Source: a bacterium
Lineage (GTDB): Bacteria > UBA8248 > JACPRG01 > G963555815
Direction: 5' to 3'
DNA length: 64,000 nt
Assembly (NCBI GenBank): GCA_965261595.1
Contig: CBDHDG010000006.1
Span: forward strand, 1,440,001-1,504,000
Shown here piece after piece: positions 38,887 to 46,333 of the stretch. Within the stretch, counting starts at the first letter, position 1; the number at the start of each line of letters is the position of its first letter. The notes under the pieces are model-generated. The model did no database searches, was not told the origin of the DNA, and saw only the letters and a list, made by a program, of their open reading frames with translations. Position numbers and translations under genes: made by a program.

Positions 38887-41800
38887 TCAGACCGAAAAAT
38901 ATTTCGCCTGCGGGTGATGGATGACGATGGCCGAGGTGCTCTGCTCGGGGTGAAGCTGGTCTTCTTCGCTCATCTCGATCCCGATCCGCTCCGCGCCCAG
39001 AAGATCCAGAAGCTTGCGCTGGTCCGCCAGGTTCGGACAGGCCGGGTAGCCGAAGGAGTAGCGCGACCCCCGGTAGCCCTGCTTGAGCATCCTGTGGATG
39101 TTCCGCTCGTCCAGGTGTCCGAAGCCGAGTTCCGCCCGGATTCGTTTGTGGATGTATTCGGCCAACGCCTCGGCCGTCTCGACGCCGAGGCCGTGCAGGT
39201 AGAGGTAATCCTGGTAGCGGTTTTCGGCGAACCACTCCCGGGCGGTGTCCGAGGCCCGCTGGCCGATGGTCACCGCCTGGAGCGCGATGACGTCCCGCTC
39301 GCCTGTCCCGATGTCCCGGAAGAAGTCGGCGATGCAGAGTCCGTCCTTCCGGGTTTGGCGCGGCAGGTGGAAACGGGCGGCCTCCCGCTCGCCGGTTTCG
39401 TCGAACAGGACCACATCGTCGCCCTCGGACGCCGCTTTCCAGTATCCATACGCCGCCTGGGGAGCGAAGGTCTTTTCTTCGATGACCGTCCGGACCATCC
39501 GGGTGAGAATCGGGCGGATTTCCCGGCCGATCCAGGATTTGAGGTCCGCTACGGAGCGCCCGCTTTTTTTGAACCCCCACTGGAAGTGGAAAAGCATGGT
39601 TTCATTCAGGTAGGGGACCAGCGACTTGAGGGAGATCCGCTCGACGAGGCGCGGCCCCCAAAATGGGGGATCGGGCACGTCCACAGCGTCGGCCAGCTCG
39701 GCCCGCCTCAACCGGATCTCCTCGAGTGCGACGGGACGGAGGATGTCTTCGCGGGTGGTTTTCTCGGCGTCCGGTTTCTTCGGGGCCGGCCGGCGGGCGC
39801 GCCTTTTCCGGGCCGCTTCGATGTGCGCGTCGAATGTGCCCTCCGCCACCTTGGCCATCAAGTCCAGGCCGCCGAAGGCGTCCGGGGCGTAAGCCACCCC
39901 CCCCCCCGATTCATAGGCGCGGGCGCAATCTTCCTCGACATACTTGCGTGTCAGCGCGGCCCCGCCCAGAAACACGGGCGCGGTGATCCCCTGCCGGGTC
40001 ATTTCCTCCAGGTTCTCCCGCATGATGACCGTCGATTTCACCAGCAGACCGGACATCCCGATGGCGTCGGCCTCGTGCGTCCGGGCCGCTTCGAGAATCG
40101 AGGCGATGGGCTGCTTGATGCCGAGGTTGATGACCCGGTAGCCGTTGTTGGTCAGGATGATGTCGACCAGGTTTTTGCCGATGTCGTGCACGTCCCCCTT
40201 CACCGTGGCCAGGACGATGGTGCCCTTGGTCCGGCCTTCGACCCGCTCCATGTGCGGTTCAAGGTGGGCGACCGCCGCCTTCATGGTCTCGGCCGACTGG
40301 AGAACGAAGGGGAGCTGCATCTGGCCCGATCCGAACAGTTCCCCGACCACCTTCATCCCGTCGAGAAGGTGGATGTTGACGATGTCGAGGGGCGGATGCT
40401 TTTGGAGGGCCTCGTCCAGGTCCGCTTCGAGACCCTGGCGGTCGCCGTCGATGATCCGCCGCTTCAGCCTCTCCTCGACCTCCGCGGGCCGCTCCTTCAC
40501 CGTCTCCTTCGCGGCGGTCCGGTCCTCGAAATGGGCGATGAAGGAATGGAGCGGGTCGTAGCCCTCGCTTCGCCAGTCGAAGATGAGGTCTTCGGCGGAC
40601 TTCAGCTCGTCCGGCGGAATCCGGTGCAGGGGCATGATCTTGCTGGCGTGCAGGATGGCGCTCGTCAGCCCCCGCTTCAGGGCGTGGTCCAGGTAGACCG
40701 AGTTGAGGACGTGCCGCGACGCCGGCTTGAGGCCGAAGGAGATGTTCGAGAGTCCCAGGATGATCTGGCATTCGGGAAGCTCGTCGTGGAGCCGCTCGAT
40801 GGCCTCCAGGGTCCAGAGCCCGAGCTTGCGGTCGTCCTCGTTGCCCGTGCAGATGGTGAACGTCAGCGGGTCGAACAACAGGTCGGATGCGGGCAGCCCG
40901 TGGCGGTTGCAGGCGAAGTCGTGGAGCCGGAGGGCGATGCGCATCTTGGCCTCGACGGTCTTGGCCATGCCCGCCTCGTCGATGGTCAGGGCGATGACCG
41001 CCGCGCCGAACTTTTTCGCCAGCCCCAGCCGCGCCGCGGGGGGATCCTCTCCGTCCTCGAAGTTGATCGAGTTGATCACCGCCTTGCCGCCGTAGAGCTT
41101 CAGCGCAGTTTCGAGGACCGGCAGCTCGGTCGAATCGAGGACCAACGGGACGGTGACGGCGCCGCGCATGCGGGAGATCACCGCGGTCATGTCGGACACC
41201 TCGTCCCGGCCGACGAACGCGGTGCACACGTCCAGGGCGTGGGAGCCTTCTTTTTCCTGCTCCCGCCCCATGCCTACCGCGCCGTCCCAGTCTTCCTGTT
41301 CCTGGAACCGCCGGAATTTCTTCGATCCGTTGGCGTTGCACCGCTCCCCGATGGACAGGAAGGCGTTTTCCTGCCGCATGGGGATCTGCTGGTAAAGCGA
41401 CGCGAGGGACGGAACCCGGTGCACCGATCTCTGGACCGGCGCGGGCCGGCGGCCCCGGGCGCGTTTTCGGAGCATCTCGTCCAGCGCGGCGATGTGGGCG
41501 GGCGTGGTCCCGCAACAGCCGCCGATGATGTGAATCCCGTCTTTTTCAACGAAGCGCTCCATCCACTTCGCCATCTCCGGCGCCTCCAGCGGGTAGTGGG
41601 TCCGGCCGTCGACCAGCTCGGGCAGGCCGGCGTTCGGGACGAGGGAGATCTTGCCGGGCCAGGAATCCCCCAGCCACTTGACGTGCTCGGCCATCTCCTG
41701 GGGTCCGGTGCCGCAGTTCATCCCGATGATGGGAACGTCGAGGGCGTCAATGATGGTCGCCGCCACCGCGATCTCGGCCCCGACCAGCAGTGTCCCCGTC

Positions 41801-42468
41801 GTCTCCACCGTCACGCTCACCTGGATCGCCGTGTCCGCCCCGGCTTCTTTCCGCGCGGTTTTGGCCGCGTTGACGGCCGCTTTGATCTGAAGCGGGTCCT
41901 GGCACGTCTCGATGAGGATGACGTCCACGCCGCCCGCGATGAGGCCGCCGCACTGAACGGTCAGGGCGTCTTCCAGGCTCTGGTAATCGATGTGGCCGAG
42001 GGTGGGCAGACGGGTCCCGGGCCCCACGGAGCCGAAGACGAACCGCCGCCGTCCGTCGCCGGCGAGGGTCTCGACGGCCTCACGGGCGATCTCCGCGCCA
42101 CGCCGGCTGAGATCGAACGCCTCGTCGGCGATGTCGAACTCCCCAAGGGTGATGGGGGAGCTTCCGAATGTGTTGGTCTTGAGGGCGTCGGCCCCCGCTT
42201 CGAGAAATTCGATGTGGATCGAGCGGATGACGTCCGGGCGGGTCCGGTTGAGGAGCTCCATGCAGTTTTCTTTGCCGAGGAAGTCTTCCTCCAGACTGAG
42301 GTCGCGGGCGTAGATCGACGTGCCCATGGCCCCGTCCAGCAGCAAGACCCGGTCGGACAAGTGGTCGAGCACGTGGACTTCGCCTCGGGGACCGGCGACG
42401 GGAAGGTCGTTTGGTCCGGCCTCCGGCGGTGCGGCAACGCCGGCGGGTTCTGAAATCGGGATCGTCAT
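38887..42468 (-). CDS. metH: B12-dependent methionine synthase
   Basis: LLDGAMGT, GGCCGT, IGERCNANGS, ATVKGDVHDIGKN, MSGLL, RYSFGYPACP. Confidence 0.97.
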   Translation of the reverse strand: MTIPISEPAGVAAPPEAGPNDLPVAGPRGEVHVLDHLSDRVLLLDGAMGTSIYARDLSLEEDFLGKENCMELLNRTRPDVIRSIHIEFLEAGADALKTNTFGSSPITLGEFDIADEAFDLSRRGAEIAREAVETLAGDGRRRFVFGSVGPGTRLPTLGHIDYQSLEDALTVQCGGLIAGGVDVILIETCQDPLQIKAAVNAAKTARKEAGADTAIQVSVTVETTGTLLVGAEIAVAATIIDALDVPIIGMNCGTGPQEMAEHVKWLGDSWPGKISLVPNAGLPELVDGRTHYPLEAPEMAKWMERFVEKDGIHIIGGCCGTTPAHIAALDEMLRKRARGRRPAPVQRSVHRVPSLASLYQQIPMRQENAFLSIGERCNANGSKKFRRFQEQEDWDGAVGMGREQEKEGSHALDVCTAFVGRDEVSDMTAVISRMRGAVTVPLVLDSTELPVLETALKLYGGKAVINSINFEDGEDPPAARLGLAKKFGAAVIALTIDEAGMAKTVEAKMRIALRLHDFACNRHGLPASDLLFDPLTFTICTGNEDDRKLGLWTLEAIERLHDELPECQIILGLSNISFGLKPASRHVLNSVYLDHALKRGLTSAILHASKIMPLHRIPPDELKSAEDLIFDWRSEGYDPLHSFIAHFEDRTAAKETVKERPAEVEERLKRRIIDGDRQGLEADLDEALQKHPPLDIVNIHLLDGMKVVGELFGSGQMQLPFVLQSAETMKAAVAHLEPHMERVEGRTKGTIVLATVKGDVHDIGKNLVDIILTNNGYRVINLGIKQPIASILEAARTHEADAIGMSGLLVKSTVIMRENLEEMTRQGITAPVFLGGAALTRKYVEEDCARAYESGGGVAYAPDAFGGLDLMAKVAEGTFDAHIEAARKRRARRPAPKKPDAEKTTREDILRPVALEEIRLRRAELADAVDVPDPPFWGPRLVERISLKSLVPYLNETMLFHFQWGFKKSGRSVADLKSWIGREIRPILTRMVRTVIEEKTFAPQAAYGYWKAASEGDDVVLFDETGEREAARFHLPRQTRKDGLCIADFFRDIGTGERDVIALQAVTIGQRASDTAREWFAENRYQDYLYLHGLGVETAEALAEYIHKRIRAELGFGHLDERNIHRMLKQGYRGSRYSFGYPACPNLADQRKLLDLLGAERIGIEMSEEDQLHPEQSTSAIVIHHPQAKYFSV

Positions 42469-42478
42469 GTCGAGCCGC

Positions 42479-43414
42479 CTAGGTGGATTCGGGATTTTCC
42501 CGGGCCGCCTCCCCGGCGGCGGGACGCAGACCGAGGACGTGGCAGATCGCGTACGTCAGGTCCGCCCGGTTGAGGGTGTAAAAGTGAAACTCGTTCACCC
42601 CTTCGTCCCGGAGTCGCCGGACCTGCTCGACGGCGGTCGAGGCCGCCACGAGGTTGTGGATGACGGGATCGTCGTCCAGCCCTTCAAAGAGCTTTGTCAG
42701 CCAGGGCGGGACCGTGGTCCCGCACATCGCGCTGAAGCGGACCACCTGGCTGAATTTGTGGACGGGCAGGATGCCGGGGACGATGGGGACGGTGATGCCG
42801 GCCGCGCGGACGCGGTCCAGAAAGCGGAGGTACAGGTCGGCGCCGAAGAAATATTGCGTGATGGCGCGCGTCGCGCCGGCGTCGATTTTCCGCTTCAGGT
42901 TGTCGATGTCGGCCTCCGGCCCTGCGGCCCCGGGATGGGTCTCGGGATAGGCGGCGACGCTGATCTCGAAATCCGCCACCCGCTTCAGACCGGTCACAAG
43001 CTCGGTTGCGTAGGGATACCCTCCCGGGTGCGGAATATATTCCCGGGTGTCTTCGGGCGGATCGCCGCGCAGGGCGACGATGTGACGAATCCCCAGGTCC
43101 CAATAGGCCCGGGCGACCTCATCCACCTCTTCGCGGGGAGAGCCGACGCACGTCAGGTGAGCGGCGGGGACCAGGGTGGTGTCGGTCAGGATTCGCCGCA
43201 CCGTCGCGTGGGTCCGCTCCCGGGTGCCGCCCCCGGCGCCGTAAGTGACGGAGACAAACCTCGGCCGCAGCGGCTCCAGCCGCTTGACCGAGGTCCAGAG
43301 GGTCTGTTCCATCTTCTCCGTCTTGGGCGGAAAAAACTCGAACGACACCTGAATCGGCCGGCCGGAGGATTCCGCGGACGGGATGTCGGGGAGCTGTTTC
43401 TCTGACGGCGTCAA
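42479..43414 (-). CDS. metF: 5,10-methylenetetrahydrofolate reductase
   Basis: VSFEFFPPK, SVTYGAGG, AHLTC, ALRGD, AYPETH, ITQYFF, HFYTLN; probable TTG start overlapping the upstream stop. Confidence 0.96.
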   Translation of the reverse strand: MTPSEKQLPDIPSAESSGRPIQVSFEFFPPKTEKMEQTLWTSVKRLEPLRPRFVSVTYGAGGGTRERTHATVRRILTDTTLVPAAHLTCVGSPREEVDEVARAYWDLGIRHIVALRGDPPEDTREYIPHPGGYPYATELVTGLKRVADFEISVAAYPETHPGAAGPEADIDNLKRKIDAGATRAITQYFFGADLYLRFLDRVRAAGITVPIVPGILPVHKFSQVVRFSAMCGTTVPPWLTKLFEGLDDDPVIHNLVAASTAVEQVRRLRDEGVNEFHFYTLNRADLTYAICHVLGLRPAAGEAARENPEST

Positions 43415-44406
43415 GGGGTCACCTCTTTCAAGCGCCCGTCGGGAATCCCCTTTGCGCTTTCCATCCGTTTCGAGGGTCCCCCCGGCCGGATCGCGGTCCA
43501 GACCGAGACGGTCAGGGGATCGCCCGGCAGGTGGACGACGGCTTCCGGGCGCAGACCCGCGGCCCGGAACCACCTTTCCACTTCATCTTCGGCGAATCCC
43601 AGGCGGCGGTGGGCATGGTGTCTCCTGAGGTCTTCCAAGTCGTGGGGCGCGAAATCGGCCACCAGGAGGACGCCCCCGGGACGAAGGGCGCGCGCCGCCT
43701 CGGACAAGGCGCGGGACGGGGTGTCCGCGAAATGAAGGACCTGATGAAAAACGACGGCGTCGAAGGATTCCGACGGCAAGGGCAATTGATACATATCGCC
43801 GTGACGAACCTGGCAATGCCGCAGCCCCGACCGCTCCAGATTCATGCGGGCGAGGGCGAGCATCTCATGGGAGCGATCCATGCCGGTGGCCTTGGCGACG
43901 TGTGGGCCGAAGACCTCAATCATCCGGCCGGCGCCGGTTCCGATGTCGAGCAGGTCCTCAATTTCCCAACCAGACAGAATGTTAAGCAATACGCGTTCCA
44001 CCTCGGACTCGGGGACGTGCAAGGAGCGGATCTCGTTCCAGCGCGGGGCGTTTTCCCGGAAGTACGCGTTCGCCGCCTCGGCCCGGGCTTCCTTCACCCG
44101 CTCCAGGCGTTGGAGGTCCAGGGAGAGGGTTGAATCGCCGTCCGGGATTAACCCGATCAGCGCGCGGCCAAGCGCCGCCTCGTCCGTGTCTTGCGCGAGC
44201 CGGTAAAATACCCAGTTCCCTTCGGGAAACCGGTCCAGCAAGCCCGCGTCACATAGGAGCTTGAGGTGCCGGGAGACCCGGGGTTGGCTTTGTCCAAGAA
44301 TTTGCGCCAGCTCGGTCACGGTCAGCTCACCGTCGCCGCAAAGGGCAAGAAGACGGAGGCGGGTGGGTTCCGCGACGGCTCGCAATCTCGCCAACAGCCG
44401 TTCCAT
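43411..44406 (-). CDS. sahR: ArsR-HTH plus SAM-binding methyltransferase-fold regulator (SahR type)
   Basis: EPTRLRLL, SQPRVSRHLKLL, LLDIGTGAG, HQVLH; heads the metF-metH operon. Confidence 0.85.
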   Translation of the reverse strand: MERLLARLRAVAEPTRLRLLALCGDGELTVTELAQILGQSQPRVSRHLKLLCDAGLLDRFPEGNWVFYRLAQDTDEAALGRALIGLIPDGDSTLSLDLQRLERVKEARAEAANAYFRENAPRWNEIRSLHVPESEVERVLLNILSGWEIEDLLDIGTGAGRMIEVFGPHVAKATGMDRSHEMLALARMNLERSGLRHCQVRHGDMYQLPLPSESFDAVVFHQVLHFADTPSRALSEAARALRPGGVLLVADFAPHDLEDLRRHHAHRRLGFAEDEVERWFRAAGLRPEAVVHLPGDPLTVSVWTAIRPGGPSKRMESAKGIPDGRLKEVTP

Positions 44407-44455
44407 CAGCGCAAAGCTCCTATATGACCGGGTCGAGAAAATTAAATAATTCAAT

Positions 44456-44485
44456 ATATATACATTTCTTTATATGGCTTGTCAA
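44456..44485 (-). promoter_or_regulatory. SahR-type operator overlapping a sigma70 promoter
   Basis: Imperfect 20-bp palindrome ATATAAAGAAATGTATATAT (44456-44475, minus strand) just downstream of TTGACA (44480-44485). Confidence 0.7.
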
Positions 44486-44655
44486 CCTCTGCGGGCTTTA
44501 GACGGTTACTTCCGGTGATTTTGATGCTATTTTGAAAGGATAGGCTTGAATGATGTCCCTTCTCGGATTGAACCCAAGGGACATTGGCCGCAGCTCGGGT
44601 CATCGAGGGTCGGCGGACCCGGTGGGTCGGAATCGACTGACAGGAGGCGCTCAGC

Positions 44656-45255
44656 ATGGGCTTGAAAGGATTGATAAACAAGCTGCGTTACGGAGATGAA
44701 AACCCGGACGCGAACCCGGAGAGAAGCCAGGCCGTTTTGGATCATCGGGAGGCGCTTTTCAACGATCCGGACACCCCCTCTTACGGAAACCCGGCCGGCA
44801 AGGTGACGGTGGTCGAGTTTATCGACTACCGCTGACACTTTTGCAGGCCCCTCCGTGGGAGGCTCGCAAAGACCAAGGATGCGGACCCGGAATTGCGCGT
44901 TGTCGTCAAGGAGATCCCCATTCTGGGACCGACTTCGCTGGATGCGTCGAAGGCCGCGTTGGCGTCCATCGGGCAGGGCAAGTATTACGAGATGCATACG
45001 GCGCTTTACGGCGCGAAGGGCAAATTCGGCGGGGACGTCATCTTCCGGATTGCGGAATCGGTTGGATTGGACGTCGAGCGTTTGAAGAGCGACATGGAGG
45101 TGCCGAGGATCAAGGAGATGTACGAGCGGAACATCGAGCTGGGCAAGGCGATCGGGATCCGGGGGACTCCCGGCTTGGTCATCGGGAGCGTGGTGATCCT
45201 GGGCGCGGTGGGAAAGAAAAAGCTCAACCAGTTGATCGAGCAGGCGCGCGGCTGA
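44656..45255 (+). CDS. DsbA-family thioredoxin-fold protein, putative selenoprotein (TGA 44833-44835 = Sec)
   Basis: RBS AGGAGG, ATG 44656; GNPAGKVTVVEFIDYR-TGA-HFCR (UxxC), KEIPILG, GIRGTP (cis-Pro). Confidence 0.85.
44840..44870 (+). promoter_or_regulatory. Bacterial SECIS-like hairpin
   Basis: TTTGC...CCTCC-GTG-GGAGG...GCAAA; G-initiated loop 20 nt after the TGA. Confidence 0.55.
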
Positions 45256-45325
45256 GCCGACTTGACTCATACCGGGCGTGAACGGCGGACCGGGGCGGAC
45301 GTCCCAACGTTCGAGGAGACCTTCG

Positions 45326-45610
45326 ATGGCCAAGGCTGTGTGGAACGGTGTTGTTTTGGCGGAGAGTGATCGCTGCGAAACTGTAGAGGGCGTCCAACAC
45401 TTCCCGCCAGACTCCATCCACCGGGAATATTTCAGGGTGAACGACACGAAAACAACCTGTCATTGGAAGGGCGAGGCGAGTTATTACGATATTGTCGTGG
45501 GGGATCAGGTGAGCGAGGGGGCCGCCTGGCACTACCCTTCCGCAATGGACGCCGCCAAACACTTTGAGGGCTACGTCGCCTTCTGGAAGGATGTCGAGGT
45601 CGAAGCGTAA
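45326..45610 (+). CDS. DUF427 domain protein
   Basis: AVWNGVVLAESD, VEG..HFP, CHWKGEASYY, AAWHYP, VAFWK. Confidence 0.9.
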   Translation: MAKAVWNGVVLAESDRCETVEGVQHFPPDSIHREYFRVNDTKTTCHWKGEASYYDIVVGDQVSEGAAWHYPSAMDAAKHFEGYVAFWKDVEVEA

Positions 45611-45673
45611 GACCCGCCCCCCCCCCTCCCCCCCGCCCGGGGATCGGCCTCGGACACAGAGGAAGACGCACGC

Positions 45674-46333
45674 TTGACCGAACCTATTATCGATACAATG
45701 GGCGTAGAGGACCGGTTTTCGCGGGTTTGCCGGGTCATGGGCCTTGTCGTTCTGGTCCTGGTTCTCGCCTGCGCGTTCACCCCCTTGCCCGATTTGTTGG
45801 TCAAACGGCTCGAAGCCTCGCGAGGCCTGGGGCCGGCGGACGCCATCGTCGCCCTGGGCGCGGGGGTGCAAAGCGACGATACGCTCAGCAACGCGTCCAT
45901 GCGCAGGGCGATTCACGGGATCGTTCTCTTCCGGAAGAAGCGGGCGCCGCTTCTGGCTTTCTCGGGGCCGGATGGGGGCGGGGGAGAAAGCCGGCCCGAG
46001 GCTGAGATTCGCGCCGAGCTTGCCCGCGACCTGGGTGTGCCCCCCGAAGCCATCCTGACGGATGTCCGGGCGAATACCACCCGTGAAGAGGCCCTCCGCC
46101 TGGGAGAACGCCTGCGGTCGAGAGGGGTCCGGAAAATTCTCCTGGTGACGGACCCGCTTCACATGGGGAGGGCGAAGCCGTTGTTCGAGCGGGAGGGTTT
46201 TAAAGTCATCCCCGCGCCGATCCCGAGCAGTTTGTCGGGTTCGGTCCAGCCGGAATCGAGGCTCCAGGTGATCCGCCGGCTCCTCAAGGCGGCCTTCGGG
46301 CGGGTTTATTACTTGGCGGCGGGACACATCTGA
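45674..46333 (+). CDS. YdcF/DUF218 family membrane protein
   Basis: DAIVALGAG, FSG, ANTTREEA, LLVTDPLHMGRA. Confidence 0.85.
   Translation: MTEPIIDTMGVEDRFSRVCRVMGLVVLVLVLACAFTPLPDLLVKRLEASRGLGPADAIVALGAGVQSDDTLSNASMRRAIHGIVLFRKKRAPLLAFSGPDGGGGESRPEAEIRAELARDLGVPPEAILTDVRANTTREEALRLGERLRSRGVRKILLVTDPLHMGRAKPLFEREGFKVIPAPIPSSLSGSVQPESRLQVIRRLLKAAFGRVYYLAAGHI

Follow-up and report, generated by a model that had tools for sequence, protein, structure and literature searches.

Positions 44656 to 45255 of the window (the whole stretch of DNA analysed, 64,000 nucleotides in length) hold one gene with an in-frame TGA, whose product is best read as a 199-residue selenoprotein with a DsbA fold; it is assigned to the ScsC branch, carries no leader, and is most likely a cytoplasmic thiol-disulfide oxidoreductase. 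The probability of this reading as a whole is put at roughly 0.7. The architecture of the protein, in which both the leader and the stalk of its relatives have been lost, is unusual. The elements of the gene are as follows.

44656..45255, plus strand: probable selenoprotein gene of 199 codons and a stop, predicted to encode a leaderless ScsC-type DsbA-fold oxidoreductase
44643..44647, plus strand: ribosome-binding site GGAGG, 8 nt 5' of the ATG at 44656
44833..44835, plus strand: in-frame TGA, codon 60, read as selenocysteine, which opens the U-H-F-C redox motif (44833-44844)

A single frame extends from the ATG at 44656 to the stop at 45253-45255 and gives 199 residues when the TGA is read through; 59 codons precede the TGA, the surrounding residues are ...VVEFIDYR-TGA-HFCRPLRGRL..., and no further stop occurs before 45253. 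The original prediction had described a frame open from a ribosome-binding site and ATG at 44656 through the TGA to a Gly-Thr-Pro motif, and its coordinates all check out. It had also held that the open reading frame track displays no more than a fragment without the active site; under the standard code two open reading frames, and no others, are listed, 44656-44835 (59 aa) and a TTG-initiated frame at 44893-45255 (120 aa). Public collections contain the same two pieces, namely P0112 (59 aa, 9 members) and P0001 (120 aa, 11 members). A variant of the 59-aa piece, P0113, is 75% identical, and pieces of 116-128 aa comprise, besides P0001, P0003 (9 members), P0006 and P0085; for P0006, P0085 and P0113 the TGA is deduced from the truncation pattern of these pieces. 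A near-length search returned no full-length form among public proteins of near length. All public copies found have the gene split into two fragments, which amounts to systematic mis-annotation; a model built from the seven selenocysteine (Sec) forms described below would mend the annotation for the lineage.

The start site is well delimited. In the same frame a TGA lies five codons before the ATG, with more stops beyond it, and the divergent upstream gene ends 200 bp from the selenoprotein gene; the N-terminus is therefore no longer than stated, and the divergent gene (43411..44454) lies too close for an upstream exon or leader to fit in. The arrangement GGAGG-N8-ATGGGCTTG is kept between the window and its orthologue in G006, a genome from another genus of the same family, while the spacer further upstream diverges; this conservation supports the start site.

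With the TGA read as Cys, the protein matches the Pfam family DSBA (PF01323) with 72.7 bits against a cut-off of 25.6 (E 4.5e-20) and Thioredoxin_4 (PF13462) with 56.1 bits against a cut-off of 23.2. A sequence search of solved structures places 3gyk first (2.8e-40, residues 30-198), followed by the ScsC proteins 7rgv, 6nen, 4xvw, 4gxz and 6mhh and also by Wolbachia DsbA2. The AlphaFold model, for which 58 aligned sequences served as input, has a mean pLDDT of 91.7 and a pTM of 0.86; it is uncertain only at residues 1-20 (pLDDT ~54), where a short helix is predicted at residues 3-12 (pLDDT ~55). Its best Foldseek match is again 3gyk_A, with a target-normalised TM-score of 0.95 and an rmsd of 1.1 Å, ahead of ScsC, BcfH, BdbD and DsbAs; the best 30 listed matches are all DsbA, ScsC or BdbD structures. 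The features of the DsbA family are present, including the profile match, a helical insertion in the thioredoxin fold, a motif of the CxxC type at the N-end of helix 1 and a cis-Pro loop.

45166..45171, plus strand: Thr171-cisPro172 loop of the thioredoxin fold, with T171 and P172 invariant in 58/58 aligned sequences

U60 aligns with the first Cys of the CPYC/CGYC motif of Cys homologues, and its column is invariant across the 58-sequence alignment if U is counted as C; F55, D57, C63, T171 and P172 are likewise invariant, and in the model a helix begins at residue 63, immediately after U60-H-F-C63. Since the alignments place U60 on the first Cys, the catalytic domain is considered whole, with the TGA replacing the nucleophilic residue, as had been claimed at the outset; the conservation of TGA or Cys at this position in homologues also agrees. 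The predicted cis-Pro motif is found downstream as G170-T171-P172 at 45163-45171.

The gene has relatives of two kinds that share the TGA. The orthologue in G006 is 68% identical, begins with the same start (MGL...), and has its TGA at codon 60 within the motif UHFC; together with the window gene it is referred to here as type A. Type B is a second paralogous lineage, 34-41% identical, with the motif UP[FHS]C and U at residue 60; its members are L164 (in the window's genome, on another contig), L166 (in G001, of the same genus), and L042 and L249 (both in G003). The L164 gene (993-1598 of the locus; contig C2 of the window's genome, G000, ~189592-190197) encodes a leaderless Sec DsbA-like protein of 202 aa with the motif UPHC and U60; a luciferase-like monooxygenase lies on one side and a PNP_UDP_1 phosphorylase on the other, and its orthologues are L166 and L042. 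The second type B copy of G003, L249 (478-1182, minus strand), keeps U60 and has an internal insertion of ~35 residues which resembles a local duplication of the helical insert. In total, 7 genes from 4 genomes retain the TGA, as do metagenome variants; the metagenome contig L084, at 96% identity, has the TGA too, and the metagenome scan gave no further Sec copy beyond it.

The distribution of these forms is narrow. Among 51 genomes of the phylum, with leaderless TGA forms counted at E ≤ 1e-25, they occur in 4/7 genomes of the window's family (G000, G001, G003 and G006) and in 0/44 genomes of other families, where Cys forms are found instead (38/42 in family f2). In a scan of all species' genomes that yielded 41 confirmed loci, G006 alone had the TGA form. 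G001, which is 95% complete, has type B only, and the window-type gene was not found in it. The window's genome also contains a Cys paralogue, L165 (~700-1587; contig C5), with the motif CVHC and a leader; the leader and the start of its ScsC_N region are out of frame with the rest, and the break, near the motif 'EYLL..NPEVV', reflects a true frameshift or else an indel of the assembly.

The N-terminus is what distinguishes types A and B from their Cys relatives. No hydrophobic stretch is present in the first 45 residues of the window protein, where the Kyte-Doolittle mean of a 12-residue window is at most -0.01; with the stops upstream, this bears out the claim that a hydrophobic N-terminal export signal is missing. 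Five Sec forms measured at their conserved starts have maximum 12-residue hydropathies of -0.15 to 0.97. For comparison, 141 loci were scanned for the active-site motif, of which 131 matched, and 134 rows were surveyed for a leader; 11 rows are cut by a contig end and one is without a start codon, and 118 are complete Cys rows. A 12-residue window of at least 1.8 is present upstream of the catalytic domain in 116/118 of the complete Cys rows (median 2.73) versus 0/4 Sec rows, which stand for three distinct places (L024 = L043). L103, considered as a leaderless Cys form, was rejected as a frameshifted gene with its leader in another frame; the second exception, L160, reaches 1.71, just below the threshold, and its N-terminus does contain a hydrophobic stretch. 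Given that no hydrophobic N-terminus occurs in the type A and B Sec forms and that 116/118 Cys homologues have one, the window protein is considered likely, by a modest margin of belief, to be cytoplasmic. The phrase 'cytoplasmic Sec-dependent thiol oxidoreductase' in the original prediction has held in its Sec part through all tests run, while its cytoplasmic part is likely, on the basis of the absent leader.

The region lost includes more than the signal peptide. Most Cys homologues are ~245-265 aa long and carry PF18312 (ScsC_N), which is not among the Pfam hits of the window protein at E ≤ 0.01; in an hhalign profile comparison, the N-terminal portions of the Sec and Cys forms are aligned only from residue 16 on (residues 16-59). 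The N-terminal stretch 'KLRYGDENPD' was considered as a relic of the ScsC_N motif 'YLxxNPE' and rejected, as the profile alignment covers residues 16-59 only.

It is also conceivable that the protein is a genuine selenoprotein that acts outside the cytoplasm or at the membrane, with non-classical or piggy-back export, or else a short amphipathic N-terminal helix, as its way there. The closest solved relatives are all periplasmic, and in all 7 Sec forms hydrophobic residues recur at regular intervals along residues 3-12, the predicted helix. Furthermore, a third Sec type is present in the sister family (L247, 475-1140, plus strand; L248, 524-1183, minus strand; motifs UPFC/UPYC, ~220 aa), in which a hydrophobic anchor comes after a basic N-terminus; the phylum thus contains Sec DsbA-like proteins that are exported or anchored, and the missing leader is specific to types A and B. 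However, no type A or B Sec N-terminus has signal-like or transmembrane-like hydropathy, the leader is missing in two paralogous lineages when nearly every Cys homologue surveyed has one, and no carrier is encoded by the adjacent genes at the window, G006 or type B loci. An extracytoplasmic role is accordingly judged unlikely, at about one chance in a handful.

With high confidence the gene is taken to be a real selenoprotein gene, its TGA being decoded as selenocysteine. The genome encodes selA (550.5 bits), selB (389.9 bits) and selD (329.9 bits), all over curated cut-offs, and a tRNA-Sec (72.1 bits, also over cut-off) which ARAGORN calls as tRNA-SeC with anticodon tca; a lack of sel genes, which the original prediction had named as a finding that would speak against it, is not what was found. 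SelA is above cut-off in 5/5 other tested genomes of the window's family. The selD gene (L001; G000 contig C5, 89297-90265, minus strand) itself has one in-frame TGA, so that SelD is also a selenoprotein.

The alternative that the TGA is a true stop would make the locus a decaying or split DsbA gene, consisting of a 59-aa peptide and an inactive 120-aa remnant. The public gene calls found are in two pieces throughout, as this would require, and the Cys paralogue L165 of the same genome is frameshifted in the assembly, an instance, in this genome, of a broken DsbA gene or of an assembly indel. Selection argues against it: relative to G006, codons 1-59 give a dN/dS of 0.347/2.94 and codons 61-199 one of 0.188/1.36, that is ~0.12-0.14 on either side of the TGA, indicating purifying selection on both halves, with the ratios to be taken as rough because dS is near saturation. 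Amino-acid identity to G006 is 34/59 before the TGA and 100/139 after it; the dN/dS comparison with G006 reveals no pseudogene-like decay on either side, and the downstream decay that had been named as a counter-indication is thus absent. A strain variant, G>T at 44687 (3 runs), puts Leu in place of Arg11, and Leu is the residue of G006. In all 7 genes of the 4 genomes the two pieces share a frame and codon 60 is TGA, the TGA falls exactly on the catalytic Cys, and the full Sec machinery is present in the genome. A further point on each side comes from the hairpin that follows the TGA.

44847..44865, plus strand: SECIS-like hairpin, nt 15-33 counted from the U of UGA, with apical G23 U24 at 44855-44856

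The hairpin core, CCTCC-GTG-GGAGG, lies at 44850-44862, where it had been predicted, and the minimum-energy fold reaches 44839-44871. The energy of the hairpin alone is not beyond chance (z = 0.67; 146/200 shuffles fold equally well), which would suit a true stop, and an Rfam scan of 44300-45400 at E ≤ 10 returned no SECIS or riboswitch family, only one chance viral hairpin on the minus strand. The significance of the element lies instead in its position and pairing, which are conserved among relatives. Across 6 sequences of types A and B (~5 lineages, with the element located in coding sequence), 85.4% of cells in helix columns 15-22/26-33 are paired, and compensatory changes are seen in 3/8 pairs: 15-33 (GC/AU), 21-27 (CG/UA) and 22-26 (GC/CG). 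The covariation score is matched by 2/500 shuffles, and every slid register scores lower. Inside type B, pair 21-27 changes through two third-position substitutions, both synonymous; G23/U24 in the loop are invariant (6/6 sequences), and C17 is unpaired in 5/6. In a strain variant shared by L084 and an RNA-library contig, C>G at 44848, the C.U mismatch of stem pair 16-32 becomes G.U. The SECIS of E. coli is described, in the passage cited, as a stem-loop of nt 15-31 that begins 11 nt after the UGA, in which U17 is bulged and G23/U24 lie at the apex (PMC8659212); by that description the window hairpin has equal geometry, including the 11-nt distance and the apical G23/U24 (PMC8659212). A hairpin conserved with compensatory changes is not expected of a decaying gene, and taken with the selection on both halves it leaves the true stop very improbable.

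The least credible alternative is that the TGA stands in error for TGC or TGT, through assembly or sequencing, or is read as Cys or Trp without selenium: the assembly may contain indel errors, but the identical TGA recurs in X3 (a DNA contig of a separate study that spans 44400-45700 and differs at three positions, the TGA not among them), in L084, in G006 and in two RNA-library contigs, and a substitution error would not recur across species. The RNA-library contigs, from two studies (44681-44877 and 44721-44979), both span the TGA; they are no proof of transcription, as DNA carry-over is possible.

For the leaderless cytoplasmic selenoprotein the following mechanism is proposed. Judged from the sequence, selenium would be incorporated at U60 of U60-H-F-C63, inserted at the UGA at 44833 by SelB and tRNA-Sec; the hairpin that begins 11 nt after the UGA, with G23/U24 in its loop, would guide the insertion. 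Where the Cys homologues have ~80 N-terminal residues, made up of the signal peptide and the ScsC_N stalk, this protein has ~15 non-hydrophobic ones, and without a leader it would most likely stay in the cytoplasm. There it would cycle between the selenol/thiol and selenenylsulfide states, and its action on its substrates may be to reduce or shuffle their disulfides or oxidised thiols of other kinds; this direction of the redox chemistry is inferred.

The genomic neighbourhood of the gene consists of the following features.

38887-42468, minus strand: metH, beyond MTHFR
42479-43573, minus strand: MTHFR, which adjoins the ArsR-HTH/SAM-methyltransferase fusion
43411..44454, minus strand: divergent gene, a fusion of an ArsR-type HTH and a SAM methyltransferase, in the same arrangement in G006
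45326..45610, plus strand: DUF427 gene (Pfam PF04248, 1.1e-27), with the adjacency kept in G006 (L043)
45674-46333, plus strand: DUF218 gene, which follows DUF427

In G006 the order MTHFR, ArsR-methyltransferase, Sec-DsbA, DUF427 is kept, after which the two genomes diverge. The best named relatives of the MTHFR are from Alphaproteobacteria (58-73% identity), and the host genome belongs to a small separate phylum. A conserved partner gene was sought and rejected, as only DUF427 follows type A in both genera and the neighbours of type B are unrelated; the neighbouring genes at the window, G006 and type B loci give no pointer to a substrate. In the divergent intergenic region there is a perfect 9-bp inverted repeat, ATGTCCCTT N14 AAGGGACAT (44553-44561 / 44576-44584), which was considered as a conserved operator and rejected because it is not conserved in G006. 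Beside the point where the minus-strand ArsR-methyltransferase gene starts, an AT-rich block of 20 nt (44456-44475) is almost unchanged in G006; it may serve the divergent region as an operator or promoter element.

The shared U at residue 60 and the length of 199 residues in 4/7 genes hint that types A and B stem from one Cys-to-Sec event; the trees disagree on this point. A quick tree of 58 rows sets types A and B apart and groups A with the Cys proteins P0002 and P0011 (SH-aLRT 98), while a 23-row tree of well-filled columns places all 5 Sec rows together (support 90, not starred); the branches are long. It is tentatively suggested, as an account somewhat short of even odds, that within a single family of an uncultured phylum a periplasmic ancestor of the ScsC type lost its leader and stalk, exchanged Cys for Sec, and persisted as two paralogous lineages with U60, giving rise to a cytoplasmic selenium-dependent redox enzyme for which the ScsC branch has no described counterpart. 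If so, the move to the reducing cytoplasm and the change from Cys to Sec would be functionally linked; for example, a selenenylsulfide may form where a disulfide would not, or Sec may capture soft metals such as Cu(I). The leader-bearing Cys and leaderless Sec forms are a natural pair with one catalytic domain, some of them in the same genome, and would allow a direct test of the benefit of Sec to a DsbA-fold enzyme and of the coupling between compartment and Sec. The three Sec DsbA-like types and the Sec-containing SelD also add evidence for wide selenium use in a little-known phylum.

Among known systems, the window protein is closest to the ScsC or '27 kDa outer membrane protein' type (3gyk, 7rgv, 4xvw, 6nen, 4gxz), with which it has in common the catalytic domain, the xxDYxCxxC motif and the Thr-cisPro loop. 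It differs in its active site, which is UHFC rather than the CPYC/CGYC of the ScsC type; in the absence of a signal peptide and of the ScsC_N trimerisation stalk; and in its length, being 199 aa compared with the ~245-265 aa of the Cys homologues. Leaderless cytoplasmic DsbA-fold proteins are known, an example being FrnE, which is Cys-based and belongs to a separate DsbA branch; FrnE and the window protein both have a DsbA fold without an export signal, FrnE with Cys and the window protein with Sec. The statement that a missing leader is unusual for the DsbA family stands for the ScsC-type branch, with such exceptions in the family at large as FrnE.

The sole NCBIfam match is NF041057, the Rcas_1661 family of thioredoxin-like (seleno)lipoproteins, which scores 41 bits against a cut-off of 190; six Sec-form proteins score 41-54 bits with this model, L247 and L248 giving 51-54, and all are below the cut-off. 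The superfamily and the UxxC motif are held in common; however, the window protein has no lipoprotein signal, and with its low score it is not considered a member of NF041057. None of the curated models covers the window protein.

Selenoproteins of a related kind have been described from sequence surveys. In the passages cited, an analysis of the Sargasso Sea from 2005 lists nine sequences of a 'DsbA-like protein' (COG2761, UxxC) as well as a 'DsbG-like protein' (COG1651, UxxC) (PMC1088965), and both appear again in a survey of 2006 (PMC1794560). A 2026 review, in the section cited, defines 'DsbA-like protein form 1' by PF01323 and UxxC, equates 'DsbG-like' with NF041057, and describes the functions of these selenoproteins as largely uncharacterized (PMC13188914); as presented in the cited portions of both sources, the 'DsbA-like protein' family is known only from bioinformatics (PMC1088965, PMC13188914). 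Within the literature searched, which lay outside subscription journals, neither a Sec-containing nor a leaderless protein of the ScsC type was found described, the one paper with both 'selenoprotein' and 'ScsC' being unrelated. The window protein has both the PF01323 match and the UxxC motif of 'DsbA-like protein form 1', the comparison extending to these two features only (PMC13188914), and the DsbA-like family of 2005 corresponds to COG2761 whereas the closest relatives of the window protein are of the ScsC type (PMC1088965). UxxC DsbA-like selenoproteins are thus already known as a group, and the window gene is a new, lineage-restricted, leaderless member of the ScsC type.
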